Shown here in pieces: positions 14,580 to 30,536 of a stretch of DNA of 64,000 nt. Origin of the DNA: Candidatus Latescibacterota bacterium (GTDB lineage Bacteria > Krumholzibacteriota > Krumholzibacteriia > WVZY01 > JAKEHA01); the NCBI GenBank assembly GCA_963707635.1, contig OY970173.1:2112001-2176000 (forward strand), in the 5' to 3' direction. Every line of letters begins with the position of its first letter. Position 1 is the stretch's first letter. The notes beneath the pieces are model-generated. The model was not told where the DNA came from. It made no database searches and saw nothing but the letters and a program-made list of their open reading frames with translations. A program made the translations under genes and the position numbers.

Positions 14580-14635
14580 CGATGACACCCGGATACCCCT
14601 ATCGGATGGTCCTTCCCCTTAGCGCGAGTCAGTTG

Positions 14636-14644: not shown

Positions 14645-14711
14645 CACTTACAAAGCCCCATCCAGCCGTTTTTTCGCGTACGGACGGCTTTTCCAAGGCC
14701 CGGGCAGGCGC

Positions 14712-15929
14712 TTACCCGGCAAGGCGTTCCACGCACGCGCGCAGCCCCGGGCCGCGCGCCTCGGGCCCGTAGGCCCTCCAGGCGTGGTCGCGGGCCCGGG
14801 CCGCGAGCCGGGCGGCGAACTGGGGATCGTCGAGCAGGCGGGCGACGTGGGAGCGATAGTCCGCCGGCGTTCTTGCCACCAGCACGTGCTGCCCGGCGTC
14901 CAGCGCCATCCCCTCGACGGCGGCCGGCGACGCCACCACCGGTAACCCCGCCGCCATGGCCTCGATGATCCGGATGCGCAACCCTCCGCCGTAGCGAAGC
15001 GGGACCACCAGGCACGCGGCGCGCTCCAGAAACGCGCGCAGGTCGCGGGCGTGACCCGCCACCTCGACGTTGGGCGCGCCCGCGAACGACTCCAGCCCGG
15101 GCGGCAGTTCCCCGCCGACGACGGTGAAGCGGATCCCCTCGATGGCGGAGAGCCCCGGATGGAGGTCGCGCGCGAAGTGAATCAGCGCGTCGCGATTGAA
15201 GGCGGCCCCCATCGCCCCGACGAACAGCACCTCGCGCGAGGCGCGCGGACCCGCCGCGGGCGCAAAACTGGCGGCAGGCAGACCGAACGGAAGCACCTCC
15301 ACCTGCGCGTTCCCGGCCGTGAGTGCGCGGGCGGCGTCGGCGTCCCGCGTCGTGAGCGCCAGGATGCGCCGCGAGCGCCGGTACGCGTGCCGTTCCTCGC
15401 GCCGCTCCATCCGCCACCGCGCCAGCGCTGCTGCGCGCGCCCACACTCCGCGCTCGAGGCGGGCGCGTTCGCGGTTGACCAGGAAATCGATGTCGTGCGT
15501 GAGCAGCACCGTTCGCTCGGGCGCGAAGACGTCGAAGAGCGGGTACAGCTGCCAGTATTCGAGCACGACCAGGTCGAACCCCTCGCTCACCAGTGCGCGC
15601 GCCGCGCGCACGAGCGACCCCGGACAGTCGTACTGGCTCTTGAGCGAGCGCCCGGTGAAGAACGCGCGCAGCAGGTAGCCGGCTCGAAAGGCGACGCGGG
15701 CGGCGAGGCGGGTGCGATTGAGTGGGAGCACGGTGACGACGCGCACGCCGCGCGTGGTCAACTCGCGCGCCAGCGCTTCCTCGCGCGGGTCGAGAAGGCG
15801 CGCCAGCACGGTCACGTCGTGCGCGTCGGCGAGCGCCTCCACGATCGCGAACGATACCACCTTCGTCCCCTGGTCGGGCGGGTACGGCAGCACCGGTTTG
15901 ACAAGGAGGATCTTCTTGCGCGCCGTCAT
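14712..15929 (-). CDS. Glycosyltransferase family 4 (type common in PEP-CTERM/EPS loci)
   Basis: LPYPPDQG N-terminus, VVPLRYGGGLRIRIIEAMAAG. Confidence 0.88.
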   Translation of the reverse strand: MTARKKILLVKPVLPYPPDQGTKVVSFAIVEALADAHDVTVLARLLDPREEALARELTTRGVRVVTVLPLNRTRLAARVAFRAGYLLRAFFTGRSLKSQYDCPGSLVRAARALVSEGFDLVVLEYWQLYPLFDVFAPERTVLLTHDIDFLVNRERARLERGVWARAAALARWRMERREERHAYRRSRRILALTTRDADAARALTAGNAQVEVLPFGLPAASFAPAAGPRASREVLFVGAMGAAFNRDALIHFARDLHPGLSAIEGIRFTVVGGELPPGLESFAGAPNVEVAGHARDLRAFLERAACLVVPLRYGGGLRIRIIEAMAAGLPVVASPAAVEGMALDAGQHVLVARTPADYRSHVARLLDDPQFAARLAARARDHAWRAYGPEARGPGLRACVERLAG

Positions 15930-17035
15930 GCCGGGATCCCGCGCGCGAGGCGTTCGTAGAGTGCGCTCATGGTCTCGACCTGCCGCTCGAGTGTGAACCG
16001 TTCTTCGAAGCGCCGGCGCGCGTTTGCGCCCAGGCGCTCGCGCAGCGGCGCGCTTTCGATGAGGCGCGCGAGCGCCGCCGACAGCGCGGGCGCGTCTTCC
16101 GGCGGCACCAGGAGTCCGGTTTCGCCGTCGACCACCACCTCGGGAATCCCGTACACGTTGCTTGCGACCACCGGAAGCGAGCTGGCCATCGCCTCCAGGA
16201 TGACGTACGGCAAGCCTTCCATCGCGGACGGGAGCACGAGTGCGTCCGCCGCCGAGAGGTGTTGCTCCACCTGCGCCGGGGACTGCCGTCCGAGGAACGT
16301 GACCCGCGACGCCAGACCGAGACGATCGGCGAGCTCGCGACAGCGCGTCTCGTCGGGCCCGGCGCCCACGACGCGCAGGCGCCAGCCGCTCGTCACCTTC
16401 GAGAGCGCCTCAAGCGTGGTGTGCAACCCCTTGTGTGCGATTATGTTTCCGACGAATACCAGGGTGAGGTCGCCGCCGCCGGGCCGCGCGGGGCGCGCCG
16501 ACCCGAACCCGAATGGGATCCCGTTGGGAACCACCCGGACCCGCTCGGCCGGCACACGCTGGCGTTCGACCAGGCACGCGGCGTTCGCCCGCGTCATCGT
16601 CACGGCGACGTCCACGGAGCGCATCGCGAGTCGCTTGAGCGCCCGGCGCTTCCACAGGGGAGGCACCATGGGCAGGTGCTCGGTGGTAACCACGCGCGCG
16701 CCCGCCGCGCGGGCGATCGGGGCAAGCAGGGCGTTCTGACCGCTGTACGGGCCCGGCATGTTGACGTGCACGACGTGCGGGGCGAGACGGTCGAGTTCCC
16801 GCCACACGCGCGGCGCGTCGTCCAGCCGCCACGGCAAGCGCATCGGCGCGCGCACGACCCGAATTCCTTCCGCGGCCAGGCCCGTCGCCCACGCGTCCAG
16901 TGCCCCATCCTGGCCATCGCCCATCAGCAACGAGACCGAGAAGCGATTTCGATCCAGCGCGGTGGCGAGACGCGACACGTAGTACTCCGCCCCGCCGAGA
17001 AACGGGGCATCGACGCCGAAGCAGAGCCGGATCAC
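15926..17035 (-). CDS. Glycosyltransferase family 4
   Basis: GTG start overlaps the upstream TGA. FLGGAEYY, EGLPYVILEAMA. Confidence 0.9.
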   Translation of the reverse strand: MIRLCFGVDAPFLGGAEYYVSRLATALDRNRFSVSLLMGDGQDGALDAWATGLAAEGIRVVRAPMRLPWRLDDAPRVWRELDRLAPHVVHVNMPGPYSGQNALLAPIARAAGARVVTTEHLPMVPPLWKRRALKRLAMRSVDVAVTMTRANAACLVERQRVPAERVRVVPNGIPFGFGSARPARPGGGDLTLVFVGNIIAHKGLHTTLEALSKVTSGWRLRVVGAGPDETRCRELADRLGLASRVTFLGRQSPAQVEQHLSAADALVLPSAMEGLPYVILEAMASSLPVVASNVYGIPEVVVDGETGLLVPPEDAPALSAALARLIESAPLRERLGANARRRFEERFTLERQVETMSALYERLARGIPA

Positions 17036-19578
17036 GGGCGTCCCCCGGAGCCCACGACGGCATCGGCGACCACCAGCGTCGCACACGGCCTGCCCGAGTA
17101 GTGATCCCGGTTGAACAGGAGGTCGTCGAGGTGGAAGTTGGGCAGGAGCGACTCCCGTTCGACCTTCACTTCGACGCGATAGGTCCCCGGCCGGGTCGCG
17201 CCCGGAACGGCGACGACGAAGCGTTCGCACAACGCCGTTCCCATCGGCCACACGTCCGGCTCGAACACGCCGTGGCCCGGGCGCACGTCGGCGCGAAAGC
17301 GAACGAACGAGCCGGACCACCGCTCGCGGGCGCGCCGCAGGTACTTCTCGCCGGGCACGCCCCGCCGTGCCGGCACGCTGGTGTGGTCGAAGCGCAGGTG
17401 AATCACGAAGGGAAAGCCGAAGGCGCAGGGCTCGTCCCTCCGGTAACCGATCGTCACCACCACCGAGTCTCCGGGCAGCACCCGCGGCGGCGACACCGAC
17501 ACCCCGGTCAGGCTGAACACGTCGCCGGGAACCGGCACGTCGCACGGGAGAGCGTCCACGGGGCCGAACGCGACCGGCGGCGCCGGCCCCAGGGCCGGTT
17601 GCGGGGCGATCCCGTCGGGCTGAAAGCGGAACGCCACCGCGTCCCCGTCCGCGAGCACGCGCAGGAAACACGCCGGCATGGACTCGATGCGCGCAACCGC
17701 CGGCTCGAAGAGAGCAGGAAGCCAGTACGACAGCACCCCGGTCGGCCCCTCGCCGGCCCCCCGGCTCACCACGACGTAGTCGACGGCGTAGCGGCGGCAC
17801 GCCGCCGGCGCCGCGCTTCCAATCGCGAAGGGCGAAAGCGCGTCGCGCACGGCGCGAAGGCGATCGAGCGCGTACGGGTCGTACGGATTCGCGTGCTGTT
17901 CGTAGAGCGCCACGAAGCGGTGCGTGGTGCAGGCACTCAGCTCGTAGCTGGTGGCGGGGTCGGAGAGAATCGTGCTGCCGGGCGGAAGCCTGCGCGCCCA
18001 CTCGGCCAGGGCGGTCGGGCAAAGACCGGCCCGTGCCGGCGGGCGGCGCACGCGTCCGGCGTCGGCGGCAAACGCGCGCACGGACGGGGCCAGAAACACG
18101 AGCGCCCACCACGCGATGGCGATCGCCGTGACCACCCGGCGCAGCGCGCTGCCCCGTCGCGCCGACCGCACGCTCCACACCACCACCAGGACCAGCGCGG
18201 GAACGACCGGCGCGTTCAAGAGCACGCGCAATACCATGTAGCTGGCGCGCGCGAAGAACGGCGTGGCGAGCCACGGCACGAACGCCAGCGCGAGCGGCAG
18301 TATCGAAAACGCCAGCGTGAGCGGCGCGCGGCGGTCCGAGCGCCGCGCGGGCACGAGCAAACCCACGAGCAGGATTCCGCCGAGAAACACGAGGCCGTGT
18401 TCACGCAGTACTTCCATCGGGCTCGCGACCATCCAGCCCTTGCCCACCGTCATCATTCCCTGCACGTGGGTGTGGATTTCATTCGCGGCGCCCCGTTCCC
18501 CGGCCAGGCGCGCGACGGCGGCCGCCCCGCACGACGCGGCGACCAGCAGCGCCACCCGGGTGCGCGCCGCCCGCGGCAGCATCGCCATGCCTCCGAAAAG
18601 CGCGAGCGTGCACGCGAGCACGAAACCGTGTGCCGCCACGCCGAGGTGCACCAGGGTACCGCCCGCGCCGACAAGCGTGAGCAGCGCCGCGCCCGCCCGC
18701 GAGAGCCTGCCCGTGGCCGCGCGCACCGCCAGCGCGGCCATCACCCAGTACCAGGTGGCGGCGAGATTCTGTCCGTACGCGGAGGTCGGCGCGAGCTGCC
18801 ACACGGTGCCGCCATAGGAAAGCGCGAAGAGCACGATGCACGCGGCGAGCATTCCCCCTCCCCCGACGAAGGTCGCCGCGAAGGCGGCGAACGCGAGCAC
18901 CGCGGCCGGAAACATGACGACGGGAAACCAGACCCAGGTCGTCGCGGGATCGCTCCCCGCGAGTACGGTGATCGAGGCGAGCAGCGAGTGCAGGCTGCCC
19001 TTGCGGGGATCGCCCGGCAGGGCGGCCGGCGCGTCCTCGGGCCACGCGAGCACTCCGTCCGGACGCATGGAGTCGAAGTCAACGGCTCGCCGCAGGTAGC
19101 CGATGTGGTCCAGCGCGTCTTCGTTCGGCGCGAGCGTCGGCCGGGCCAGGACGGCGATCGCCGCCAGCGCCATGACGACGAGCGCTCCGGCCATCACCCG
19201 CCGCCCGCCGATGACGCGCGCGCGGTGCCGACGGAGAACGGTCACGATCACCGCCAGATACGCCGCGAGCAGCGCCCACACCGTCGCGTCCGTATAGCTG
19301 GAGAGGCGGCACCCGGCGCGCCACGCGGCTTCCGATGCAATCGCGTGCACGGAGAGCGCGCCGACGATCGACAGCGGGTACGCGAGGAGGAATGAAGGAG
19401 TCGTAACGCGCGCGGAAACGATCGCCAGCGCCACCGCGGCGGGCGCGACGATGACGCCGATGAACACCGTGATCACCCGCGCCGCTTCCGGGGCGGCGCC
19501 GAGCCAGCCGGCCGCCGCCAGCCCGGTGGCGGCGAATCCGATTCCGGCCGCCGCGGCGGTGAAGACGGAGTGTTTCAA
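17032..19578 (-). CDS. Large polytopic membrane protein with a C-terminal Ig-like domain, probable GT-C glycosyltransferase
   Basis: TTG start overlaps the GT2 stop. Many TM helices, loop motif NEDALDHIGY, and C-terminal PGDSVVVTIGY...WPMG...PGTYRVEV. Confidence 0.6.
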   Translation of the reverse strand: MKHSVFTAAAAGIGFAATGLAAAGWLGAAPEAARVITVFIGVIVAPAAVALAIVSARVTTPSFLLAYPLSIVGALSVHAIASEAAWRAGCRLSSYTDATVWALLAAYLAVIVTVLRRHRARVIGGRRVMAGALVVMALAAIAVLARPTLAPNEDALDHIGYLRRAVDFDSMRPDGVLAWPEDAPAALPGDPRKGSLHSLLASITVLAGSDPATTWVWFPVVMFPAAVLAFAAFAATFVGGGGMLAACIVLFALSYGGTVWQLAPTSAYGQNLAATWYWVMAALAVRAATGRLSRAGAALLTLVGAGGTLVHLGVAAHGFVLACTLALFGGMAMLPRAARTRVALLVAASCGAAAVARLAGERGAANEIHTHVQGMMTVGKGWMVASPMEVLREHGLVFLGGILLVGLLVPARRSDRRAPLTLAFSILPLALAFVPWLATPFFARASYMVLRVLLNAPVVPALVLVVVWSVRSARRGSALRRVVTAIAIAWWALVFLAPSVRAFAADAGRVRRPPARAGLCPTALAEWARRLPPGSTILSDPATSYELSACTTHRFVALYEQHANPYDPYALDRLRAVRDALSPFAIGSAAPAACRRYAVDYVVVSRGAGEGPTGVLSYWLPALFEPAVARIESMPACFLRVLADGDAVAFRFQPDGIAPQPALGPAPPVAFGPVDALPCDVPVPGDVFSLTGVSVSPPRVLPGDSVVVTIGYRRDEPCAFGFPFVIHLRFDHTSVPARRGVPGEKYLRRARERWSGSFVRFRADVRPGHGVFEPDVWPMGTALCERFVVAVPGATRPGTYRVEVKVERESLLPNFHLDDLLFNRDHYSGRPCATLVVADAVVGSGGRP

Positions 19579-20246
19579 GCGAACCGCTTCGTGACCAGAA
19601 AGAGCAGATTCCGAAACCCGTCCCGCCACTTCTGGAGTTTCACCTCTCCCACGCGGGGATGGTAGTCGATGGGATACTCCCCGAAACGGACCTGCGGGTG
19701 GCGGATCGCTTCGATCTTGATCTCTTCCGAAAACGCCATCCCGTCGCTCTTGACCGTCAGTTTCTGATACACCGGCGAGCGAAACACCCACATCCCCGAT
19801 TGCGAATCCCGCACCGCCCGGCCGTACAGGATCGCCATGCCGATCGTGAGCACGAGGTTCCCGACCTTGTTGGAGAAGTTCATTGCGCGTGGATTCCGCA
19901 GCGGGAAGCGCGACGCGCTGACGAAATCCAGTTCGCGTTCCACGAGGTGGTCCACCAGCTCGGGAATCTGCTCGGCCGGGTAGGTGCCGTCCCCGTCCAG
20001 GGTGACGGTCACGTCGCCGGTGACGGCGGGAAGCCCCGCCTGGTAGGCGGCGCCGTAGCCCTTGCGACGCTCGAATACCACCCGCGCGCCCAGCGAGCGC
20101 GCGGTCTCGGCGGTGCGATCGGTGCTGTTGTTGTCCACCACCACGACTTCGTCGACGCAGGCGGGCAGCTGGCCGATGGTGTGGCGAATCCCCTGCTCCT
20201 CGTTATAGCACGGAATCACGACGCTGATTTTCAAACCAAGGTGCAT
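19575..20246 (-). CDS. GT2 polyprenol-phosphate glycosyltransferase (DPM1-like)
   Basis: ISVVIPCYNEE, VVDNNSTD, GYGAA, LDGDGTY, DSQSG, RVGEVK. AGGAGG RBS. Confidence 0.9.
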   Translation of the reverse strand: MHLGLKISVVIPCYNEEQGIRHTIGQLPACVDEVVVVDNNSTDRTAETARSLGARVVFERRKGYGAAYQAGLPAVTGDVTVTLDGDGTYPAEQIPELVDHLVERELDFVSASRFPLRNPRAMNFSNKVGNLVLTIGMAILYGRAVRDSQSGMWVFRSPVYQKLTVKSDGMAFSEEIKIEAIRHPQVRFGEYPIDYHPRVGEVKLQKWRDGFRNLLFLVTKRFA

Positions 20247-20266: not shown

Positions 20267-21796
20267 CTACCTGGGAGCCCCCAGCAGGCGCGCGAGACGC
20301 CCCGCCATGGGGACCGGAATGGAGGCGACGACGTCGAGCTCCTCGGGGGTGAACAGACGCGCGGCGCGGTACGCCGCCGCCACCGCCACCACCGCCGCCG
20401 CGGTCGCGGCGGCCAGCCCCACGCTTCCCTCCACGCGCCACAGCACGGGCACCGCCACGAGAACCGCCGCCGAGGCGAGAAAGCAGCGGCCGATGAAACG
20501 AAACGGAATCGAAATCTCCGGCACGAAACGCCGAACGGCGATGAAATACGCGATGGGCTGCGCGGCGATCGCGATCGCCACCGGAATCATCGCTCCCGGC
20601 ACGCCGTACTTCGGTATCAACACCAGATCCAGACCTATATTGATGATGGCGAGGAACAGGTAGATTAGCAGATTGACGTGGGTTTTTTCCAGAACGTAGA
20701 GCGCCATCGACAGGGGGGTGGACACGAAAGACACCGTGAAGATGGCGAAGAACAACTGCGTCGGGAGCGCGGCAGCGCGCATGCCGTCGCCGAACATATC
20801 CACCACCACCCGCCCGCCCAGCACGATGCCTCCCGCGCACAGCGGCGCGCACAGCAGGAACAACAGCCGATAGTAGCGCTCGACCACGCCGCGCAGGCGG
20901 GCGGGATCGCGCGAATACGCTTCCGACATCCCGGCCATCACCAGCGGCCACACCGTGCCCGGAACGAATTCGAGGATGGTCTGCGGCAGCCGGTACGCGA
21001 GGTCGAAGAACCCCGCCTCCGCCGCGGTTCGAAAGTGCCCCAGTAACAACGTCTCCGACTGGCGCCACACCACCAGGTTCAGCACGCCGATGGCGGCGAA
21101 CGGGAGCGAGTACTTCCAGAGCCGCGCGCGTGTGACCTCCGCTTCCGTGTCGCGCGCGGGAAATGCCGTCGCGCTGCCGAGCCGGCCGACGATCATGGCG
21201 CACGCCACCGCGTTTCCGAGCGCGCCGGCGGCGAGTACCCCGACGACTCCCCACCCCATCGGAATCGCGACCGCGACGGCGGCGGTGTAGACGACGTGGC
21301 TGGCCAGCGCGGCCGCGCTCAGGCGCGCGGTGTCGTAGCTCGAGTTGAGCACGTGGGCGGCGACGGTGAAGAGGATTTCGAACAGGGCGAGGGCCACGGC
21401 GGCCGCGACGTACACCCCGACGCCGTCGCCGTGGAATACGCGCTCGGCCGCGCCCCGGAAGACGAAGGCGCCCGCGGCCAGCCCCAACCAGGTGAGCGCG
21501 TGGATGGCGACGACGCGCCGCACGAGCCGCCGGGCGGCAACCGCCGACCCGCTCACCCGCAGCACCGGGAGGAACTTCAGCAGCGCCTGGCCCGTGCCCA
21601 GCCCGGCGAAGAGGACCGCGAACATCAGGATCGAGCGCACGACGCTGAGCACGCCGTAGTCGTGGTCGCCGAGCCCGCGAACCACGATCACGCTGCTCGC
21701 GAATCCCAGCACGAAACGGGCCGCGCGCGACGCGACCGTCCACGCCATCGCCCGGCCGATGCGCTGGGTGGTGCCCCCTGCTTCAGCGTGACTCAT
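20267..21796 (-). CDS. wzx: Wzx-type oligosaccharide flippase (MOP superfamily)
   Basis: ~12-14 TM helices, RGLGDHDYG, AGFFDLAYRL, LIPKYGVPGA. Confidence 0.85.
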   Translation of the reverse strand: MSHAEAGGTTQRIGRAMAWTVASRAARFVLGFASSVIVVRGLGDHDYGVLSVVRSILMFAVLFAGLGTGQALLKFLPVLRVSGSAVAARRLVRRVVAIHALTWLGLAAGAFVFRGAAERVFHGDGVGVYVAAAVALALFEILFTVAAHVLNSSYDTARLSAAALASHVVYTAAVAVAIPMGWGVVGVLAAGALGNAVACAMIVGRLGSATAFPARDTEAEVTRARLWKYSLPFAAIGVLNLVVWRQSETLLLGHFRTAAEAGFFDLAYRLPQTILEFVPGTVWPLVMAGMSEAYSRDPARLRGVVERYYRLLFLLCAPLCAGGIVLGGRVVVDMFGDGMRAAALPTQLFFAIFTVSFVSTPLSMALYVLEKTHVNLLIYLFLAIINIGLDLVLIPKYGVPGAMIPVAIAIAAQPIAYFIAVRRFVPEISIPFRFIGRCFLASAAVLVAVPVLWRVEGSVGLAAATAAAVVAVAAAYRAARLFTPEELDVVASIPVPMAGRLARLLGAPR

Positions 21797-22907
21797 CCAG
21801 CACCCGTTGCAAGTACGCCTTGAAGCCGAGGATCGACGCCGGCACCGTGTTCGACGCGGTCGACATGAAGCACCCGCGCGAATACCGGTCCTCGGGGTGG
21901 TAGCCGTGCATGGCCGCGATGGGTCGCGCCCCCATGAAGCTGGGCACGATCAGCACGCCCGCGTCGGCGAGGAAGATGCTGCGGCCGTACTCGCGCTCGG
22001 GAAACAGGCAGCCGAGCGACGCGAGCTCGGAGTCGTCCAGGCGCCGCCCGAGCCCGCCGAAGGCCTCGGCCACCGCCCCATCCACGTCGGCATCGCCCCA
22101 CACCCGCGCCATGGTCGAGTCGAAAAACGCGAGGTAGTCGCGCCCCAGTGCCAGCCCACGACGCGTGAGTGTGCCCCAGACGTCGACGGTGCGCGTAACC
22201 GCCGTCATGCCGTGGTCGCTCAAGAGCACAATCGAAAGCTCTACGTCGCGCGCGCGCGCCTGCGCCCGCGCGTCCGCCAGGAAGCCCTCGTAACGGGCCA
22301 GCTTCGCCCGCACTGCCTCGTGAACGATGCCGACGCGATGCATGAGCGCGTCCAGCTCCGCCGTGTAGACGAACAGGACCTCGGCGTCGCCGCCCAGCGC
22401 CGCGACCGCGTCGCGGAAGTTGTCCTCCTCGGGCGTCCGGTAGTACCACGCCCGATAGTGAATGCCCCGCGCGCGCATCCAGTCGAACACGGACTCGCAC
22501 CCGAGCCCCCCGGGCTCGAACGGGTCGGTACGCTGCGCGACGTCGAAGCGATGCAGCAGGTGCACGGGTATGTCATAGAGATCGTAGTACGATCGCACGC
22601 CCCCGCGCCGGTCGACCCAGCGGCGCACCCAGCGGCGCGCGCGCCAATCGACGGCGTGCGGCAGGCGCGGCACCCCGCGCAGGAACGCGAAGGTACCGCC
22701 CGCGCGGGCAGCGCGAAACATGGAAAACACGCCGTGCTCGCGCGGCTCCGCCCCGGTAAGCAGACTCGGAATGGCGGTGGAGCTGTACCCGAGCACGGTA
22801 CCGAGCGACGAGCGCCGCGCGAAGGTGCGGTTCCCGAAGCCGTAGTACTCCGCGATCTCCCAACCGAGCGCGTCCACCAGAAATACCAACGTCACGCGGC
22901 GCGCCAT
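21783..22907 (-). CDS. Alkaline-phosphatase-superfamily protein (nucleotide pyrophosphatase/phosphodiesterase-like), no signal peptide
   Basis: FLVDALG, GYSSTAIPSLLTG..P..HG, ELDALMH, LSDHGM and MHGY metal/nucleophile motifs. Confidence 0.82.
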   Translation of the reverse strand: MARRVTLVFLVDALGWEIAEYYGFGNRTFARRSSLGTVLGYSSTAIPSLLTGAEPREHGVFSMFRAARAGGTFAFLRGVPRLPHAVDWRARRWVRRWVDRRGGVRSYYDLYDIPVHLLHRFDVAQRTDPFEPGGLGCESVFDWMRARGIHYRAWYYRTPEEDNFRDAVAALGGDAEVLFVYTAELDALMHRVGIVHEAVRAKLARYEGFLADARAQARARDVELSIVLLSDHGMTAVTRTVDVWGTLTRRGLALGRDYLAFFDSTMARVWGDADVDGAVAEAFGGLGRRLDDSELASLGCLFPEREYGRSIFLADAGVLIVPSFMGARPIAAMHGYHPEDRYSRGCFMSTASNTVPASILGFKAYLQRVLDESR

Positions 22908-22918
22908 CCCGGACTCCC

Positions 22919-24064
22919 TCACGAAATCGCCCGGTGCGCGGCCGCTGTCCGGCGCGCCACCGAGCCGTCGGCGAAGCCGAGCACGGTCGTCAGGCGCTCC
23001 ACGTAACGCTCGAGTGCCGCCAGGCCCGGGGCGGAGCCCGGTTCGGCGCGCCGCAACTCCGCCACGAGCGGATGGGTTCGCAGCGCGACGCGCGGCGAGA
23101 AGGAGGCGAACCGGAGTCCGCGCACGGCGCTTTGCGCCCGCGAGACGCCGCTCGCGTGCCGCAGCCGAACGAATTCGCGATAGTTGCCCCAGCGACGCCC
23201 TTGCCCGCAGCGCCGGTTGACCTGGGCCACCACGTCTCCCCCGGCGCCGAGGACACGGGCGGCGAGGGCTCGCCACGCGTCCGCGGCCAGCATGACCGCG
23301 CGGGCCACCTCGGCGGACCCACCCCCCGCCCCCACGTATCCATCCAGCCGGCCGTAATCCGCAAACGCCGCTTCGATGTCGGCGCGCGCGCGCGCCGACA
23401 TCGCAGCGGGCGTGCGGGCGCGAATCGCATCTACGCGACCCTGGACGGAGGACGCGTAGCCGCCTTCCGCAATCAGGTGAGCGGCAGCGATGTCGAGGCG
23501 CGCCTTGAGCGCCTGGACCCTCGCGAACCGTTCCTGGGCCGGGTCGGCCGGCGTCGCCAGCCACGACAGCTCCGCGATCCGATTCTCGAGCAGATAGAGC
23601 GCCTCGGCGGGCGCGATCCTGCGCGCTTCCAGCGGCGCGAGCGCGTCGAGCAGCGTGCGGTCCCCGAACAACCAGAACGACTCCCGGGCGAGGCCCGCGG
23701 TCCCCGGCCGCGCGGGCTGGGCCACGAGGTCCTCGAGCGTGTACACGCCGACGTCCGCCCCGCGCAGGAATCGCGCGCCAACTCCTGCGGCAGGCAGACG
23801 CTCGCTCGCCGCGCTGGCCTGTGCGCGCACCGGCGCCATGGCGCCCGGGCCGGACACCACCAGGTAGACATCGAGATCGGAGTAGATTTCCCAGTCCCCA
23901 TCCACGCGAGCGGCCCACACGTCGCCGCGCGCCGCGCTGCCGCCGAGAAACACCGCGCGAACACTGCCCGCCGGCACCGCCGAGAGAATGTCGGCGCACA
24001 GCGCGTGCGCGCGCGCGCGCAGGAGCTCGATCGGGGAGTCGTTGAGAGTCGAAGACTGCTGCAC
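22919..24064 (-). CDS. Pol-beta-superfamily nucleotidyltransferase-domain protein with a helical C-terminal region
   Basis: VFLGGSAARGD...YSDLDVYLVV (hGS-X-DxD), with a third acidic residue in ADVGVY. Confidence 0.7.
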   Translation of the reverse strand: MQQSSTLNDSPIELLRARAHALCADILSAVPAGSVRAVFLGGSAARGDVWAARVDGDWEIYSDLDVYLVVSGPGAMAPVRAQASAASERLPAAGVGARFLRGADVGVYTLEDLVAQPARPGTAGLARESFWLFGDRTLLDALAPLEARRIAPAEALYLLENRIAELSWLATPADPAQERFARVQALKARLDIAAAHLIAEGGYASSVQGRVDAIRARTPAAMSARARADIEAAFADYGRLDGYVGAGGGSAEVARAVMLAADAWRALAARVLGAGGDVVAQVNRRCGQGRRWGNYREFVRLRHASGVSRAQSAVRGLRFASFSPRVALRTHPLVAELRRAEPGSAPGLAALERYVERLTTVLGFADGSVARRTAAAHRAIS

Positions 24065-24083: not shown

Positions 24084-24926
24084 CTACAGCCGTCGATAGA
24101 TGAAGGCGGGGATGTAGTAGCGCTTGCGGTTCAGCACTACACCGACGACGCGACCCTTGAACTGCTCGACCTGTTTCACGGAGCGCTCGACGGTCTCGCG
24201 CTTGGTCCGGCCGCAATGCACGACCAGCGCCACCCCGTCGGCGAGGGGAGTGATCGGCGGCGTCTCCGGGCAGGCCACGATCGGCGGGGCGTCCACGATC
24301 ACCGCGTCGTAGGTCCGAAGCGCATCCGCGAACAGGCGCGGCAGCAATCGCTCGAGGTTGATCTGGATCAGGGTCGGGTCGGCGCGCCCGACGTGTAAAA
24401 TGTCGAAGTCCTCGCCAGCGGGGCGCTGCACGAGTGAATCGAGCGGTGCTGCGTGCTCGAAGTAGTCGGTGACGCCTTCCGGCCGCGGCAGCGCGAACGT
24501 CCTGGCCAGCGACGGGGTCCGCGCGTTGAGCTCCACCAACAGGACCCGCGCCGCCCCATGCATCGCGAGCAGACGACTGTAGCCGACCGCGAGCGTCGTC
24601 ACCCCTTCGCCGTGCATCGCCGACGTGAAGACAAGCACGCGCTTCGCGCCGCGTTCGAGGCGCGTCTCGAGCGAATTGCGCAGGATCCCGAGCTCGCGCA
24701 GGAGCTCGCCGGGAAACGGATCCGACCCGTTCACCGACGGCGCCTGCGCGGGCGCCTCCGCGGCCACGTCGGCGTCGGGACGCGCCCGCACTGGCGCGTC
24801 GGCGCGGCGGAAGTCGGGCCGCGCGGGCGCGGGGTCCGCGAGCACCTCGCGTACGGTGTCCACGGACTCGTGCTGCCGGCGCCTTTCCGCCTCCGCGCGC
24901 CGCAATGCGTCGAACATCTTGCTCAA
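24084..24926 (-). CDS. CpsD/CapB-family BY-kinase-like protein (degenerate Walker A)
   Basis: TTG start overlapping the ATPase stop, MSKMFDALRRAE, FTSAMHGEGVTT, LLVELNARTP, IVDAPP, GVVLN. Confidence 0.8.
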   Translation of the reverse strand: MSKMFDALRRAEAERRRQHESVDTVREVLADPAPARPDFRRADAPVRARPDADVAAEAPAQAPSVNGSDPFPGELLRELGILRNSLETRLERGAKRVLVFTSAMHGEGVTTLAVGYSRLLAMHGAARVLLVELNARTPSLARTFALPRPEGVTDYFEHAAPLDSLVQRPAGEDFDILHVGRADPTLIQINLERLLPRLFADALRTYDAVIVDAPPIVACPETPPITPLADGVALVVHCGRTKRETVERSVKQVEQFKGRVVGVVLNRKRYYIPAFIYRRL

Positions 24927-25783
24927 TGCGCGGCGCCTCCCCCGGCCGCCCGCCGGTTCGGAACGTCGTGCCCGCCGGTGACCCCGAGCTCCTGCGCGCT
25001 CGCGAACACCAGGTCGGATTCGATCGCGCGTGCCTTCTGCAGGTAACCGCGCACGAGGATGCGGTCGCACAGCATGTTGATCAGGCGCGGCGTGCCCGCC
25101 GAGTACTCGAAGATCCCGTCGATCGCCTCTTCGGAGAACACCAGCTGACCGTTCGTCAGCCCCGCGACCGCGAGGCGGTAGCGCACGTATCGGTACACTT
25201 CGTCCCGCGACAGCAGCTTCATGTGGCAGACGCCGGAAATGCGCTGGCGGAGCTGGCGCAGGTCGTCGCGCTGGAGCAGGTGCCAGAGTTCGGGCTGACC
25301 CACCAGCACGATCTGGATGAGCTTCTGCTGATTCGTCTCCAGGTTCGAGAGCATGCGCAGCTCTTCGAGCACGTCGGGCGAGAGGTTCTGCGCCTCGTCG
25401 ATGACGAGCACCGGGTTCTGATTCTCGGCGTAGCGCTTGATCAGGAACTCGTTGAGTTGCGCGAGCATTGCCACCTTGAGGTCGCTCTTGATCTCGACGC
25501 CGAAGTCGGTGAGGAGCATGTAGAGCATTTCGCGGAAATCGACTTTGGTGTTGATGACGAACGAGACTTCCAGACAGGGGTGGAACGTCTGCACGAACGC
25601 GCGCACCACCGTGGTCTTCCCCACCCCGACCTCGCCGGTCAGGGCCAGGAAGCCCTTCTTGAGGAATATCCCGTGCGCCAGGTACGCCAGCGCCTCGCGG
25701 TGCGCGCGGCTCTTGTAGAGGTAGCGCGGATCCGGGGTGGTCCCGAACGGGTTTTCGCGCAGGCCGTAGAACGCCTCGTACAT
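24923..25783 (-). CDS. ExeA-like AAA ATPase (type associated with PEP-CTERM/EPS loci)
   Basis: MYEAFYGLRENPF..TPDP, GEVGVGKTT, IDEAQNL, LVGQPEL, GTPRLIN. Confidence 0.9.
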   Translation of the reverse strand: MYEAFYGLRENPFGTTPDPRYLYKSRAHREALAYLAHGIFLKKGFLALTGEVGVGKTTVVRAFVQTFHPCLEVSFVINTKVDFREMLYMLLTDFGVEIKSDLKVAMLAQLNEFLIKRYAENQNPVLVIDEAQNLSPDVLEELRMLSNLETNQQKLIQIVLVGQPELWHLLQRDDLRQLRQRISGVCHMKLLSRDEVYRYVRYRLAVAGLTNGQLVFSEEAIDGIFEYSAGTPRLINMLCDRILVRGYLQKARAIESDLVFASAQELGVTGGHDVPNRRAAGGGAAH

Positions 25784-25784
25784 G

Positions 25785-27185
25785 CTACCCACCCCCACCC
25801 GCAGCCGTGCGCTTGCGGCCGCCGGTCTCGCTGACCACCGCCAGCACCGTCACTCCCAGGAACTCCTCTGCTTCCGCCCGGCTCTTGACCGAGTGATCCA
25901 TGCTCTCCAGGAAGAACGCGATGCCCAGGCCCACGATGATGCTGAGCAGCGGGCCCAGCGCGAGGCGGATATAGTCGCGCGTCTTCTTACTGTACGGGGC
26001 GCTCGCGTGCTGGAGGATCGCCACGTCCTGCTCGGGGCTTCCGGCTTGGGCGATCTCGGACTCGCTCTGACGGTTCTGCAGCAGCTCGATTCTACGAGCG
26101 AGATTCTTGATGGTCTCGTCGAACTCGGTGAGCTGGCGCTCGCGGTTGGGGATCGCGTCCAGTTCGGCGCGGGCGGTATTCAGCTCCTCTAGAACCGCCG
26201 CGAGGCGCGCCTCCATTTCGCTCAACGACACCTTCTCCACCAGATAGGCGTTCTCAACCTGTCGTTTCAGGTCGGCGTGCAGGTCGGCGATCTGCTGATT
26301 CACCGCCAGCAGTTCCGGGTGCTTGTCGGTATATTTCTGCATCAGGTCTTCCCGTTGCAGGTTCAGCTGTTGCAGCGAAAACTTGATGTTCTGGACGACG
26401 GCGGATTGCAGCACGTGCTGCGATACCGAAAAAGCGAGCTCGCTTTCCAGCTCCGGCCCGCTCCGCTTGCTCAGCTGTTCGAGATTCGCGACGCGAAGCC
26501 GCTGGGAGGACACGTCGCCGTTCAATTGCGAGACCCGCGCCTCGAGCGTTCCGATCTTGCTCAGGAGAAAACGGCTGGTCTCATCGGTGCCGAAGAACTT
26601 CTCCCGGTTCATGAATTCGTTGCGCCGCGCGCGCCACAGTTCGAGCTGGGCGCGCGTGTCGGCCAGCTCCGCCACGAAAAAGTCACTCAGCGCGGGCGGG
26701 CTCTTGCGTTCGCGATAGTACTCCTGGAAGGCCTGGGTCACGACGTTGCACCCGAGCGTGCACACCTCGCGCCGAACGTCGGCGTAACTGATGACGAATG
26801 CGTTCGACTCCCCGATCACGTCGGCGCGTACCGCCACCGCGTTGAACGTCCAGTCCGCCGGCAGGCCGCGATCCTTCACGGAATCCGCGAACGCGACTCG
26901 CGCGCGGCTGAAGACGTCGTCGGAGAGGATGACCTGGATCTCCGAGGCCACCTCTTCCGCCCACCCCAGGGTCCGTATGGCCGGACTCAACAGGCTCGTC
27001 TGTTCGCCGCGGCGCACGAGGACACGGGAGCTGGATTCCCAGAGAGCGGGTCTCCGCGCGTCGAGGATGACCACCAGCACGCTCGCGAACGCGAACACGG
27101 ACAGGATGACCCACTTGCGCCGGAAGACGACGTCGAGAAAGTCGCGGAGACTGGTTTCCTGGCGATTCTGAAGCTTATCTGGCAT
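25785..27185 (-). CDS. Wzz/GumC polysaccharide co-polymerase (no fused kinase)
   Basis: SLRDFLDVVFRRKW, N- and C-terminal TM helices, coiled coil, KYTDKHPE, LESMDHSV. Confidence 0.88.
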   Translation of the reverse strand: MPDKLQNRQETSLRDFLDVVFRRKWVILSVFAFASVLVVILDARRPALWESSSRVLVRRGEQTSLLSPAIRTLGWAEEVASEIQVILSDDVFSRARVAFADSVKDRGLPADWTFNAVAVRADVIGESNAFVISYADVRREVCTLGCNVVTQAFQEYYRERKSPPALSDFFVAELADTRAQLELWRARRNEFMNREKFFGTDETSRFLLSKIGTLEARVSQLNGDVSSQRLRVANLEQLSKRSGPELESELAFSVSQHVLQSAVVQNIKFSLQQLNLQREDLMQKYTDKHPELLAVNQQIADLHADLKRQVENAYLVEKVSLSEMEARLAAVLEELNTARAELDAIPNRERQLTEFDETIKNLARRIELLQNRQSESEIAQAGSPEQDVAILQHASAPYSKKTRDYIRLALGPLLSIIVGLGIAFFLESMDHSVKSRAEAEEFLGVTVLAVVSETGGRKRTAAGGGG

Positions 27186-28053
27186 TGATCTGGGTGGGGT
27201 TGTTGGCCCGGAAATACTCATAGCTCGACGACAGGTTGGCGATCTGCCAGCCCTTGAAGACCGCGTCCAGCGGGACCGTAATGATCTTCCCCACCTGCTC
27301 CATGAAATCCGCCGCCGAATAGATGGGGTGCTGCGGCACGAACACGATGTCGTAGTTGCGCAGCCGCAAGTCGTTCTGCATCGTCGAACCGTCCATGACC
27401 GCCTGCAGGTCGACTTCGACCCCGACGATCTTGGAGACCGCCTGGCGCCGGATCAGAATCACGTGTCCCGGGAGCGCTCCCTTCCTGAATCCGCCGGCCG
27501 ACGCGATCGACTGCAGCATGGTGATGTCGTCGTCGAACTGCACCTGGCCCGGGACCTGTACTTCGCCGAGCACATACGCCCTCTGCGGGGCGGGCTTCTT
27601 CACGATTACGGCGAGACTCGGGTCGCGGAGGATTTCGCTGAAGCGAACCTCGAGCAGCGAATCGAGCTCCATGGGCGTGATGCCGGCCGCCATGTGGTCG
27701 CCCACGTACGGGAGCGAGATGCGCCCGTCGCGGCGTATCACCAGGTCCCGCGTGGTCAAGTTGCTGTGGTAGAGGAACACGATCTCGAGCAGGTCGCCGA
27801 CGCCCATCACGTACTCGGGATCCAGCAGCGGCTGGATCGTCTGGCGGGTTTCGGCGTCGAACACCGCCAGGGAATCGCTGTCGTACCAGCCCTGGGAGCG
27901 ATCCGCCCCCTTGGCACCGGACGCGCAACCCGTGGCCACCATCGGCAACGCTGCCGCCAAACCCAGCGCGCACGCGAGCGATGTGTGGGCCTGCGCCCGA
28001 CGACCCGTGAGCCGCTTGCCCCAGCTCACGCCACTAAAGAAAACGCAACTCAT
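27175..28053 (-). CDS. wza: Wza-like polysaccharide export lipoprotein
   Basis: GAGGAG RBS, lipobox VATGC, YVMGVGD, RRDGRISLPYVG, VLGEV..PG, SLBB domain. Confidence 0.88.
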   Translation of the reverse strand: MSCVFFSGVSWGKRLTGRRAQAHTSLACALGLAAALPMVATGCASGAKGADRSQGWYDSDSLAVFDAETRQTIQPLLDPEYVMGVGDLLEIVFLYHSNLTTRDLVIRRDGRISLPYVGDHMAAGITPMELDSLLEVRFSEILRDPSLAVIVKKPAPQRAYVLGEVQVPGQVQFDDDITMLQSIASAGGFRKGALPGHVILIRRQAVSKIVGVEVDLQAVMDGSTMQNDLRLRNYDIVFVPQHPIYSAADFMEQVGKIITVPLDAVFKGWQIANLSSSYEYFRANNPTQINAR

Positions 28054-28102
28054 TAACTCCTCGACGATTATGAAAAGCCTGATGGGCGTTTGGATTACAA
28101 GC

Positions 28103-28117
28103 GCAAGGCGCATGCCA
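28103..28117 (-). promoter_or_regulatory. sigma54 (-24/-12) promoter candidate upstream of wza
   Basis: TGGCATGCGCCTTGC matches TGGCAC-N5-TTGC, ~50 nt before the ATG. Confidence 0.7.
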
Positions 28118-28132
28118 CCAACAGGAGCCGCA

Positions 28133-28828
28133 TCAGTATGCTCCACGCCTTGCCATCACGGCAGGAATCGTCTTCACAAAGATGAGGAAATCGGTCCGCA
28201 AACTCCGGGTGCGCAGATACTCCATGTCCAGCCTCATCCACTCGTCGAACCCGATCTGGCTGCGGCCCGAGATCTGCCACAGGCAGGTGATCCCGGGCTT
28301 GACCTCCAGGCGGCGACGGTGACTCGGGAGATAGCGCGACACTTCCGCCGGCAGCGGCGGCCGCGGACCCACGATACTCATGTCACCCTTGAGAACATTC
28401 AACACTTGCGGGACCTCGTCCATGCTGGAGCGCCGCAGGAAACGCCCCACCGACGTCACCCGCGGGTCCAGCCGCATCTTGAATACGGGGCCGTCCTGTT
28501 CGTTGCGGCCCTCGAGCTCTTTCTGTCTGCGATCCGACTCCACGTACATCGAGCGGAACTTGTAGAACTTGAACGGCCGGCCCCCCTCGCCAATGCGGTC
28601 CTGGCGGTAGAACACCGGCCCCGAGCTGTCGAGCCGGATGATCAGCGCGATCAACGGGACGACGGGAGCGAGCAGAATGAGGATGAGAAAACCGACGATC
28701 AGGTCGAAGATTCGCTTGGCGGCCACGTACCCCGGGGGCACGCGCAACTCGACGCCGTCAAATTCCGACACTCGCGTGCCCTCAAACCCACGAGTTCCTC
28801 TGGACTCCACTTGCACGAGGTGCTCCAT
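28133..28828 (-). CDS. Phosphoglycosyl transferase (Bac_transf, short form)
   Basis: [42 protein letters not shown]. Confidence 0.92.
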
Positions 28829-28868
28829 CACGCGGCTGCGGCTCGGCTCGGCGTGGGACGTCGGGAGT

Positions 28869-28907
28869 AAAAAAATAACCGCAGGGGGAAAACCACCCAC
28901 GCGGTTA
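28869..28907 (-). terminator. Intrinsic terminator (possible attenuator) 40 nt upstream of the PGT gene
   Basis: TAACCGC-gtgggtggttttccccct-GCGGTTA followed by TTTTTTT. Confidence 0.75.
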
Positions 28908-29030
28908 CACGCCCCCGAACTGGCCTGACTAACGCTCACCCGCGCGCGCCGGGGCGCGCAGGACTGTGTCTTGAACTGACAACGAGAACCGTTAACAGAC
29001 GAGTCCGGATGAACCTCCTGAAACGCGCAT

Positions 29031-29059
29031 ATAGTATCAAGTTGTGAGCGTGCTGTCAA
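29031..29059 (-). promoter_or_regulatory. Near-consensus sigma70 promoter
   Basis: TTGACA-N17-TACTAT with an extended TG, overlapping the end of the O-antigen ligase/polymerase gene. Confidence 0.75.
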
Positions 29060-30536
29060 GCCGCGGGTCGGCGGGCTGGAGCGCGGCCTCTGCCTCCTCC
29101 CGGATCAGGCGCGCCCCGGCCACGACCACACCGAACCACAGCCACAGCATGTACGGATAGATGTCATCGCGCTGGTGGTCGCTTCGGAGCTGGAGGACCG
29201 CGAACACCACGAACCAGACGTGGGCCAGGGCCATCAGGTCGCCGACGGGGTGGCTCTCGTTCTGCCAGACCCGCTGCGAGAGGGTCATGCGATAGATCCG
29301 AGCCATGATCCACATGAACGCGCCCAGGCCGAAGAGGCCCAGCGTCTGCAGATAGAACAGGTAGGCGTTGTGAGGCCAGAACTGGAACGCCAACCCCTCT
29401 ACCACGTCAAAGTACGGGCCGTGGCCAAAGAACGGGTGCTCCATGCTCTTGGCGATCGACGGGGCCCACGTCATCGTGCGCGTCTCCGGAACCATTCCCA
29501 CCATCTCGGTATGCAACAACCGGTCGAGTGGCGAAGTAGCCACCGTGTAGCGATCGAGGAGATAGGCCACCGATACCACCAGCAGTACGAAGGCGAGCAC
29601 CGCCGCGGACAGCTGTCGAAACGGCAATTTCCGGCGGAACAGAAACGTGGTGTATACGATCGCGATGGTGAGACCGATCAGACCGCCGCGGTTACCCGTC
29701 GAGAGAACGCCCACCAGTGTGGCCGCGGTCGCCAGTGCCCAGAAGGTCTTCTCCAGGGGGTTGCGCGCTTTCCACGCGAAGTACCCCAGCAGGCAGAACA
29801 CGTAGCTGCCGAAGTCGGCCACGTTCGCATCGCTGGCGAGGGCTCCGCCCACGCGGATCTTGTGCACTCGAGCCGCGAGCCGGCCACCCTCTTCCAGCCC
29901 TCGGCCCAGGTCGATCCAGCCGGGAATGATCACGGTGCCCGGCGCCACCAGTTCCACGATCGCCGTCAACATGACCAGCGTGATGCCGAAGGCCATCAGC
30001 TTCAGCAGACGGGTCAGCTTCTCCGGCGTGTCCACGAACGTGACGATCATGTAGAAGAACGCGAAGCACGCCAGTTGCCGCCACAGCACCTTAAGACCCA
30101 TGATCAAGAGGTGGTTGGTATCCACATTCATGAACGAGAGCACATAGGCGAGCGCGAAGAGCGCGATCGGGGCGTCGAGCGTCGTGCGGCGAAACAGACG
30201 CGCCTTGGTGGAGGCCGCGCGCACCGCCCAGATCATCGGGATCACCGTCATCAGGACGCTGTTGCTGCTCGCGATCGAAATGCCGCTCGGAAAGATGAAC
30301 AGCACGGCAAAGAGATAGACCGCGTAGACCATCTCGAAGCGAAACATGAATGCCATGAGCCCGAGAAACAGCGCGGCCTTGATGGCGCGGTGCTGGGGCT
30401 TGACGGCCTGCTCAGCGGAAAACAGCGCGCCGATGGCGACCAGGGTGGCGACAGGTATGATCCGCACCGCAAGGTCGAGGCCGCGCGCGAACCACGCGGT
30501 CCCGCGGCGCTGAGTCTTTTCAACCGTCGTATTCAC
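29037..30536 (-). CDS. O-antigen ligase/Wzy-like polymerase
   Basis: ~12 TM helices, STGNRGG, R..TW....HPFFGHG, PHNAYL. GTG 30536 start with an AGGA RBS (alternative 30590). Confidence 0.85.
   Translation of the reverse strand: MNTTVEKTQRRGTAWFARGLDLAVRIIPVATLVAIGALFSAEQAVKPQHRAIKAALFLGLMAFMFRFEMVYAVYLFAVLFIFPSGISIASSNSVLMTVIPMIWAVRAASTKARLFRRTTLDAPIALFALAYVLSFMNVDTNHLLIMGLKVLWRQLACFAFFYMIVTFVDTPEKLTRLLKLMAFGITLVMLTAIVELVAPGTVIIPGWIDLGRGLEEGGRLAARVHKIRVGGALASDANVADFGSYVFCLLGYFAWKARNPLEKTFWALATAATLVGVLSTGNRGGLIGLTIAIVYTTFLFRRKLPFRQLSAAVLAFVLLVVSVAYLLDRYTVATSPLDRLLHTEMVGMVPETRTMTWAPSIAKSMEHPFFGHGPYFDVVEGLAFQFWPHNAYLFYLQTLGLFGLGAFMWIMARIYRMTLSQRVWQNESHPVGDLMALAHVWFVVFAVLQLRSDHQRDDIYPYMLWLWFGVVVAGARLIREEAEAALQPADPRLDSTLTT

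Follow-up and report, generated by a model that had tools for sequence, protein, structure and literature searches.

What do a nucleotidyltransferase and a phosphodiesterase-like enzyme do together in the middle of an exopolysaccharide operon? The parts list of Wzx/Wzy pathways is thought to be well known, yet two adjacent genes, here called NT and AlkP, fall outside it. They lie in the window, the whole 64,000-nt stretch of Candidatus Latescibacterota DNA that we analysed, among the following features.

8131..20243, minus strand: downstream glycan genes, namely a GT2, a large unassigned membrane protein, four GT4s, a DegT aminotransferase, a second WbaP-like transferase, a Gfo/Idh/MocA oxidoreductase and a radical SAM/SPASM protein
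20267..21796, minus strand: Wzx flippase (PF13440/PF01943)
21783..22907, minus strand: AlkP, 374 aa, NPP-clade member of the alkaline-phosphatase superfamily (PF01663, E 6.7e-14)
22919..24064, minus strand: NT, 381 aa, Pol-beta-superfamily nucleotidyltransferase of an uncatalogued family
24084..24917, minus strand: CapB-like tyrosine-kinase-fold protein (TIGR01007 at E 1.6e-20, under the cut-off)
24923..29059, minus strand: XrtA/PEP-CTERM-type ATPase, Wzz, Wza and WbaP-like priming transferase, the upstream genes for export and initiation
29037..30590, minus strand: Wzy-type polymerase/ligase (PF04932)

The arrangement was as the original prediction described it: NT is followed after 11 nt (22908-22918) by AlkP, the pair sits between the CapB-like gene and wzx, and the last 14 nt of AlkP also form the beginning of wzx (start at 21796). 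The capB-like stop and the NT start are 19 nt apart, and the CapB-like protein has Val in place of the Walker A Lys (EGVTT) and lacks a tyrosine-rich tail. NT and AlkP are real genes, because both have full-length homologues and their AF2 models reach pLDDT values of 95.6 and 95.9, respectively. The names given to these homologues go no further than "hypothetical protein" and "alkaline phosphatase family protein", and no characterised one was found; a targeted literature search of listings and abstract openings yielded no description of the pair.

NT had been read as a Pol-beta-type enzyme from its GS...DxD motif, and the residues conserved among homologues and the structural model agree. The motifs are GGS41-43 and SD63LD65. 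G42, S/G43, D63 and D/E65 are each present in 260 of 260 homologues, and D104, the third carboxylate of the metal-binding triad, is D or E in 255 of them; in 4 of 84 locus copies of NT, and also in L163, Asn takes the place of D63, the first Asp of the catalytic site. The model contains the NTase core fold, with an MNT-like catalytic part (G42, S43, D63, D65, D104), a HEPN-like helical bundle (E154, N161, R162, K187, R210) and a further helical part at the C-terminus. NT is thus confirmed as a Pol-beta-fold nucleotidyltransferase with an intact acidic triad. Clustering at 50% identity divides its family into about 1,000 groups; the members examined are single NTase-plus-helical proteins of 350-450 aa, without regulatory or remover domains of the GlnE/GlnD type. 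The window NT had no match in Pfam, NCBIfam or PADLOC, PDB profiles matched it weakly (E 0.08-1), and the 30 matches in the ESM Atlas had no Pfam in common. Neither a signal peptide nor an export signal was found in NT, whose maximum 19-residue hydropathy is 1.55.

The best Foldseek matches to NT were sugar-hydroxyl nucleotidyltransferases throughout (ANT(4')/KNTase/AadA; E 1e-4 to 8e-4, probability 1.0), and its best VIA match was ANT-3,9 (Z 11.3, rmsd 3.8, 221 aligned). DrrA (Z 10.8) and GlnE (Z 10.0) scored level, or almost level, with the ANTs; the modelled fold does not tell a sugar acceptor from a protein one. ANT(3'')(9)/AadA, ANT(9) and ANT(4')/KNTase (7uy4, 6fzb, 6sxj, 6nmk, 1kny) share with NT an MNT-like domain plus four-helix bundle and the hG[GS]...[DE]h[DE]...[DE] triad. 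NT differs from them in sequence (11-18% identity), in some 110 additional C-terminal residues, in its chromosomal location within glycan operons, in its NPP-like partner and in the lack of any match in a plasmid search; the curated ANT/KNTase models of NCBIfam and Pfam gave no sequence-level membership. A role as an MNT-HEPN toxin-antitoxin or defence protein was rejected: no His, and hence no Rx4-6H histidine of the HEPN RNases, is found among NT columns at least 70% conserved, and PADLOC was negative. On inspection, a weak match to the NT profile (L133) proved to be an unrelated MNT-HEPN-like fusion protein.

The view that a Pol-beta fold is unusual in glycan synthesis stood only in part. 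LicD, FKRP and CpsC are described as Pol-beta-fold enzymes of glycan synthesis (PMC2794190, PMC11666461); NT itself is not a LicD member, with PF04991 negative in 30 members of its family and in the genome. LicC/LicD, FKRP/fukutin and CpsC resemble the window's case in that an NTase-fold enzyme, encoded within a glycan locus, handles nucleotide-linked phosphoryl groups. In these systems, however, the NTase fold belongs to the transferase, the activator has a GT-A fold and there is no NPP partner.

All motifs listed for AlkP in the original prediction were verified in the window (D12ALG, YS42S, D186xxxH190, SD231H232G and H334GY), as was the lack of a signal peptide; a TM segment is likewise absent, and maximum 19-residue hydropathy is 1.36. 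These motifs predict a bimetal site formed by D12/S42/D231/H232 and D186/H190/H334, with Ser42 as the nucleophile and all metal ligands kept. Across 118 rows, conservation was near complete (D12 115, S42 116, D186 116, H190 117, D231 116, H232 118, H334 116), and the family has a motif of its own, D263-S-T-M-x-R268. The first metal ligand, residue 12 in the window, falls at residues 2-19 in 116 of 120 homologues, those in which the motif was found. The AF2 model matched the NPP-clade fold in Foldseek at E 1e-16, and this fold is present with its cap domain (Z 25.8-28.7 over ~310 residues). Z scores were 28.7 for ENPP6, 28.1 for ENPP4 and 27.0 for Xac NPP, as against 15.0 for EptA and 14.9 for PorX. 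Judged by sequence and model, AlkP is an NPP-clade enzyme without an export signal, and diesterase activity is predicted. We rejected its assignment to PglZ/PorX, given the lower score and no PglZ Pfam or PADLOC match, and to EptA/LtaS-type transferases, given the score and no membrane anchor.

AlkP shares PF01663, the full-length fold (Z 24.9-28.7) and all six metal ligands with ENPP6, ENPP4, ENPP7, Xanthomonas NPP and phosphonoacetate hydrolase. It is unlike them in having no signal peptide, a Ser nucleophile, the DSTMxR motif, only ~15% identity and an altered pocket. Nucleotide-preferring NPPs carry a base-stacking Phe after the nucleophile; the residue there in AlkP is Ser, as in ENPP7. 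The phosphoryl-binding Asn of NPPs corresponds to M63 in the window AlkP, as aligned through weak HMM segments with no superposition. By the same weak alignment, the Asn111-equivalent column of the 118 rows holds Met in 49, Tyr in 36, Ser in 14 and Phe in 14, and Asn is absent from its six commonest letters. In NPP this Asn contacts a phosphoryl oxygen, and SPAP exemplifies an NPP fold capable of monoesterase function (PMC3145672).

Whether the two genes belong together was assessed from their distribution. Among 151 genomes of the window's own phylum, 63 had both, 2 had NT only, 5 had AlkP only and 81 had neither; the corresponding counts in 201 Verrucomicrobiota genomes were 43, 1, 0 and 157. 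The pairing thus holds with very few exceptions in two phyla, and the pair is sporadic in at least four more. In four Verrucomicrobiota genomes (G205, G341, G326 and G323) NT and AlkP share a contig but are separated by about 140 kb to 3.9 Mb; because they co-occur even at such distances, linkage alone is insufficient to explain the pairing. A mirror-tree comparison, in which the identities of the two proteins correlated over 68 loci (Spearman 0.68), and the Fisher p-values obtained with it are confounded by kinship and were therefore left out of the evidence.

Wzx and glycosyltransferase genes were the constant neighbours of the pair, and CapB was not. The gene directly after AlkP was most commonly wzx (51 of 107 loci), and 64 of the 107 had a wzx no more than 7 kb downstream. 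A divergent pair (HH probability 97.5) sits between wzx and a GT4, next to a Polysacc_synt_2/epimerase sugar block, on an 18-kb contig with an O-antigen-like locus that has neither capB nor wza. Co-occurrence and context support the proposal that NT and AlkP form a conserved module of glycan loci not described before, and we lean towards glycan tailoring of some kind as its role. The original prediction would have fallen if homologues of the two failed to co-occur or to be enriched in glycan loci, or if the NT model lacked its acidic triad; neither was the case. Of the two options originally offered, activation followed by transfer onto the repeat unit would fit this gene context best, as far as sequence can tell. 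The other, nucleotide-based control, was weakened in its CapB-specific form, as was the idea that NMPylation replaces a CapB pseudokinase: a CapB-like gene is absent from 36 of 79 fetched stretches with both genes and from the divergent pair, and 8 of 45 CapB-like proteins in pair loci retain the Walker A Lys.

Our best explanation, put forward tentatively, is that NT adds an NMP to a sugar hydroxyl and that the nucleoside is then removed, so that phosphate stays on the repeat unit. The substrate would be the lipid-linked repeat unit or its precursor before flipping. NT, on the model of the aminoglycoside nucleotidyltransferases, would move an NMP (probably UMP or CMP) from NTP to the hydroxyl, releasing PPi. 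Ser42 of AlkP would then attack the sugar-NMP phosphodiester and expel the nucleoside, and the sugar-phosphoryl group would pass either to water, which leaves the repeat unit phosphorylated, or to a different hydroxyl, which creates a phosphodiester bridge. The polysaccharide would thereby gain phosphate without a kinase. In favour of this scheme are the pairing, the position next to wzx and other glycan genes, the ANT-like fold of NT and the altered NPP pocket of AlkP. Mannose-6-phosphate tagging uses a GlcNAc-1-phosphotransferase and then an uncovering enzyme. A two-step route of this kind is described (PMC9246025). The logic is the same, a capped phosphate that a phosphodiesterase uncovers, but the folds are unrelated, the system is eukaryotic and the cap is a sugar instead of a nucleoside. 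If the best explanation is true, phosphorylated or phosphodiester-bridged bacterial glycans would arise by a new route that needs neither kinase nor NDP-alcohol donor, and aminoglycoside adenylyltransferase chemistry would gain a housekeeping role in glycan synthesis.

A fuller version, in which a resistance-type nucleotidyltransferase adds a UMP/CMP tag, the cytoplasmic NPP frees the nucleoside and a uridine kinase salvages it, is slightly less likely. Uridine kinase (NF004018) occurs in 20 of 44 non-type-A (Verrucomicrobiota-type) loci, immediately before NT in L103 and two genes ahead of AlkP-NT in L120. Within Verrucomicrobiota it was present in 14 of 44 NT-bearing genomes against 11 of 157 others, counts in which kin are not independent, and lay within the EPS cluster in 6 of the 14 NT-bearing carriers and none of the 11 other carriers. 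A family II pyrophosphatase directly follows AlkP in two of 107 loci (L121 and L122). These neighbours fit with bulk NTP turnover. However, the family II pyrophosphatase is confined to those two loci, and in L148, a locus whose genome lacks the pair, udk likewise has an H+-PPase at its side. Further, udk may be a housekeeping passenger, since four of the five genomes checked carry no other udk and none was found in 30 of the 44 NT-bearing genomes. Its absence from 36 of 36 type-A loci, the window included, counts against the best explanation; in the window's genome it lies ~1.6 Mb from the pair. In canonical NPPs it is the NMP that is kept and the other substituent that leaves, a direction in which the AlkP step would be a mere reversal of the NT step, and this too counts against it. 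So do the near-equal scores of DrrA and GlnE, the NT copies with Asn for D63, and several loci in which NT or AlkP neighbours SpoIIE or response-regulator genes and the vicinity holds no glycan genes (L099, L102, L113-L116 and L118).

The same glycan context and co-occurrence are shared by an unlikely alternative, a LicC/LicD-like route run on different folds. NT would make NDP-X from NTP and X-P (a polyol-, amino-acid- or sugar-phosphate), and AlkP would transfer P-X to the repeat unit through a Ser42-P-X intermediate, with NMP leaving. Conserved basic residues of NT (R162, K187, R210, R296) could hold an anionic acceptor. NPP-clade enzymes split pyrophosphate bonds, and a covalent intermediate is used by transferases of the AP superfamily, EptA among them. 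Tam41 is an NTase-fold activator of a phosphomonoester (PMC7018664). Against this route, no conserved kinase, transporter or other supplier of X accompanies the pair in the loci surveyed, and release of NMP leaves the uridine kinase unexplained. Moreover, the AP-superfamily transferases known to us are membrane-anchored and outward-facing, whereas AlkP has no anchor and matches EptA poorly. Least likely among the alternatives is reversible capping or precursor housekeeping, in which NT would cap a sugar intermediate with NMP and AlkP would take it off, as a checkpoint or as a nucleotide swap on a sugar-1-phosphate, the polymer gaining no group. Both closest folds would then be used in their canonical chemistry, AlkP in the canonical NPP direction, and the position just ahead of wzx would suit such a cycle, as would portability across differing sugar chemistries. 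Yet each cycle spends one NTP, the changed pocket residues of AlkP speak against canonical NMP handling, and no precedent was found in the literature searched.

Ranked between these two, and also improbable, is a writer/eraser pair: NT would NMPylate an EPS-machinery or Rsb-type partner-switch protein, or make a nucleotide signal, which AlkP would remove or degrade. GlnE and DrrA act on protein tyrosines, and both fall within 1.3 Z of the best NT match; the GlnE adenylyltransferase domains (3k7d, 1v4a) and DrrA/SidM have the NTase-plus-bundle fold of NT (Z 9.5-10.8), and many NT members carry a GGYGRGE motif similar to GlnD. This reading would also suit the pairing of unlinked genes, the frequent catalytic degeneracy of CapB and its missing tyrosine tail, and the SpoIIE/response-regulator genes that, in many loci of Verrucomicrobiota, adjoin one or other member of the pair, at times without close glycan genes. 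PorX is an AP-superfamily diesterase in signalling (PMC9757075), but it is a remote fold match to AlkP, and PADLOC was negative. Unlike GlnE, DrrA and GlnD, NT has no regulatory domain or fused remover, and sensor and receiver domains are absent from both proteins. No one protein target is conserved: CapB is often missing, as noted above, and Rsb genes are absent from type-A loci, the window's type. The dead kinase is also uncoupled from the pair: 8 of 45 CapB-like proteins keep the Lys, and CapB is dead in a genus without NT as well.

Every surviving reading would give Wzx/Wzy pathways a function not described for them, whether new phosphate chemistry on glycans, a cytoplasmic NPP that works as a transferase, or control of export by NMPylation. 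NT and AlkP, as small soluble proteins whose catalytic residues are defined (D63/D65 and S42), are amenable to direct in vitro work.

In the genus without NT, which also lacks a wzx orthologue, AlkP is decaying (D186G, H190R and D231A in L084); because this genus has lost most of the locus, the decay does not point to NT alone. GT2 was rejected as a conserved third gene, the neighbouring GT2s forming three separate clusters.

The pair lies in a Wzx/Wzy exopolysaccharide (EPS) operon of the PEP-CTERM-associated type, which also holds wzy, two WbaP-like genes, wza, wzz, an XrtA-type ATPase gene, GT2 and GT4 glycosyltransferase genes, and DegT and Gfo genes; the nearest named relatives are Ca. 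Krumholzibacteria, and the host probably belongs to that phylum. Every sequence feature that the original prediction had described for the Pol-beta-type nucleotidyltransferase (NT) and the alkaline-phosphatase-superfamily enzyme (AlkP) was present, in this order:

24084-24917, minus strand: capB-like gene, directly before NT
22919-24064, minus strand: NT, 381 aa
21783-22907, minus strand: AlkP, 374 aa, separated from NT by an 11-nt gap
20267-21796, minus strand: wzx, overlapping AlkP by 14 nt

Elsewhere in the window, a large membrane protein without a Pfam or NCBIfam match (17032-19791) is conserved after wzx-GT2 in 24/81 loci, and is possibly a GT-C whose polyprenol-phosphate sugar donor would be made by the adjacent GT2. 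A radical SAM/SPASM protein is encoded at the far end of the EPS operon (9405-10430), and GSU2086-family (deoxyhypusine-synthase-like) and DUF3108 genes (30613-32461) are each conserved upstream of the EPS locus in 16/81 loci.

The expectation that homologues of NT and AlkP co-occur was borne out. The window's phylum was sampled with 151 genomes, of which 65 had NT and 68 had AlkP: both in 63, NT only in 2 (81-84% complete, with partial matches), AlkP only in 5 and neither in 81. Of the Verrucomicrobiota genomes, 201 in all, 44 had NT; full-length AlkP was detected in 43, every one within those 44. This AlkP count leaves out 24 genomes whose AP-superfamily matches were all weak and partial (E 1e-19 or weaker), under a cut picked post hoc, after the gap below 6.5e-54 was visible. 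The genes were co-retained though distant in genomes G323 (4.65 versus 0.71 Mb) and G326 (1.60 versus 2.38 Mb), and also in G341 and G205. AlkP was rare in the other phyla sampled, those of genomes G152 (3/151), G156 (2/301) and G153 (7/201); in the first two of these samples all five genomes with AlkP had NT as well, and the AlkP genome G157 gave no NT match. Within the best 80 of 559 AlkP loci in the genome collection, NT was found in 51, directly upstream in 30 and elsewhere in 21, the other 29 loci being mostly truncated where a contig or the 10-kb flank stops. These counts are descriptive only, because related genomes are not independent. We conclude that NT-AlkP is a real, strongly coupled and undescribed module; a literature search of titles and abstract openings among openly available articles found no description of the pair.

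The glycan-locus setting, also anticipated, shows in the position of wzx, which lies directly 3' of AlkP in 51/107 loci and within 7 kb in 64/107 (loci with room to tell, 14 short loci excluded; labels by BLAST to our own Pfam-checked clusters). Two gene orders recurred. Type A, under Krumholzibacteria, Latescibacteria and Eisenbacteria titles, reads wza-wzz-(ATPase)-capB-NT-AlkP-wzx-GT2. Type B, from Verrucomicrobia and others, reads GT-udk-WecG-LbH/WbaP-SpoIIE-RR-AlkP-GT4-wzx-GT2-NT-acetyltransferase, with many rearrangements (one annotation round scanned 96/181 candidate ORFs). A distant pair in genome G408 has the order wzx-NT-AlkP-GT4 adjoining Polysacc_synt_2/epimerase genes, and its 18-kb contig carries neither capB nor wza. 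In genus g22, where the search of the locus did not recover NT, wza, wzz or the wzx orthologue and the greater part of the EPS locus was not found, AlkP is decaying (L083:11413-12729, L084:2015-3409).

NT had no match in Pfam, NCBIfam or PADLOC, and 5/30 close homologues weakly touched Polbeta/NTP_transf_2. A profile search gave 988 clusters at 50% identity, and a broader profile gave 2,215 proteins (7,997 candidates scored). The metal-binding acidic triad, which the original prediction had named as a test, is retained (D63 and D/E65 in 260/260 homologues, D/E104 in 255/260), and E154, N161, R162 and K/R187 are likewise conserved. In one subclade Asn replaces the first catalytic Asp (4/84 locus NTs); NTs with this HNNLD motif (L053, L069, L037, L044, L163) still have an AlkP partner. 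The AF2 model (pLDDT 95.6) joins an MNT-like domain to a HEPN-like bundle. Foldseek ranked aminoglycoside nucleotidyltransferases first (E 1e-4), and a wide structural search returned ANT-3,9 (Z 11.3), DrrA (10.8), ANT-4 (10.6), HEPN (10.4), AAD(9) (10.0) and GlnE (10.0), scores so close that sugar-modifying and protein-modifying relatives are indistinguishable by fold. By the tests run, NT was not assignable to the ANT, LicD, GlnE/GlnD or MNT-HEPN families. A second NT paralogue in G153 (L117:7940-9172), with neither AlkP nor glycan genes nearby, is convergent with a calcineurin-like phosphoesterase gene. In protein P0226 the C-terminal third of an NT is fused to an apparent transposase, presumably IS66, probably through insertion into an NT gene.

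AlkP matches PF01663, and its model (pLDDT 95.9) resembled ENPP6 (Z 28.7), ENPP4 (28.1), Xac NPP (27.0) and ENPP7 (26.0) against 15.0 for EptA and 14.9 for PorX; on this model AlkP is clearly an NPP-clade enzyme. Diesterase activity is assumed from the clade. Ser42 and every metal ligand are retained in 115-118 of the 118 aligned rows. Neither a signal peptide nor a TM segment was found, and compared with NPPs AlkP is an atypical, cytoplasmic member. In NPPs an Asn contacts a phosphoryl oxygen of the substrate (PMC3145672); as mapped through weak HMM segments, AlkP has Met, Tyr, Ser or Phe there, and the residue following its nucleophile is mostly Ser, like ENPP7. G326 also encodes a second, degenerate AlkP paralogue amid housekeeping genes (L133:8167-9294), in which other residues stand in place of the metal ligands D12 and D231.

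NT and AlkP each fall within a known superfamily. NTase-fold enzymes occur in glycan synthesis as LicD-type transferases (PMC2794190, PMC11666461); these share the fold with NT and, unlike it, have no NPP partner. We tentatively favor, as the most likely single reading, a two-enzyme modification of the sugar: NT would transfer an NMP onto a sugar hydroxyl, AlkP would remove the nucleoside via a Ser42 intermediate, and the phosphate would be left on the unit or transferred onward before Wzx flips it. The uridine kinase gene, udk, bears on this reading. It was found in 20/44 type-B versus 0/36 type-A loci and in 14/44 NT-bearing versus 11/157 other Verrucomicrobiota genomes, with up to 14 candidates per genome scored; it sits within the EPS cluster in 6/14 of the former and 0/11 of the latter. 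A step that frees a nucleoside would account for udk, since the usual Wzx/Wzy reactions yield UMP and UDP rather than uridine. Against this, it is the sole udk in 4/5 genomes examined, and in the window's genome it is remote. A family II pyrophosphatase lies directly 3' of AlkP in 2 loci. Both associations are hints and fall short of proof.

Alternatively, NT might make an NDP-X from which AlkP transfers, a somewhat unlikely route for which Tam41 offers a precedent (PMC7018664). Glycan tailoring by the pair, in either form, is on balance slightly favored. In several loci NT or the pair adjoins SpoIIE/RR genes and the surrounding ~5 kb holds no glycan genes, which counts against a purely biosynthetic role. 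Writer/eraser control, in which NT modifies a protein or messenger and AlkP reverses this, has a precedent in PorX (PMC9757075). Its CapB-specific form was weakened by our survey of loci. The general form is an unlikely rival. A reversible cap or nucleotide swap is less probable still.

The window's CapB-like protein (24084-24917) lacks a tyrosine tail and no longer has the Walker A lysine (EGVTT), a residue missing from 37/45 homologues in fetched loci. The same genome has a second, intact Wzc-type kinase (EGKST and tyrosine tail) around G000:C1:2.055 Mb, beyond the window. In L101, L103, L104 and L107, NT is preceded by a recurrent fusion of a degenerate sugar-phosphate nucleotidyltransferase, a left-handed beta-helix and a partial WbaP domain, and followed by a Wzz/Wzc-like protein without a recognizable Walker A. 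Type-B loci (L042, L048 and others) gave EPS_EpsC (E 1.8e-33, cut-off not reached) and EPS_EpsD as top NCBIfam matches and also carry GH9 and WecG genes, a set that we take to resemble the Myxococcus eps locus.
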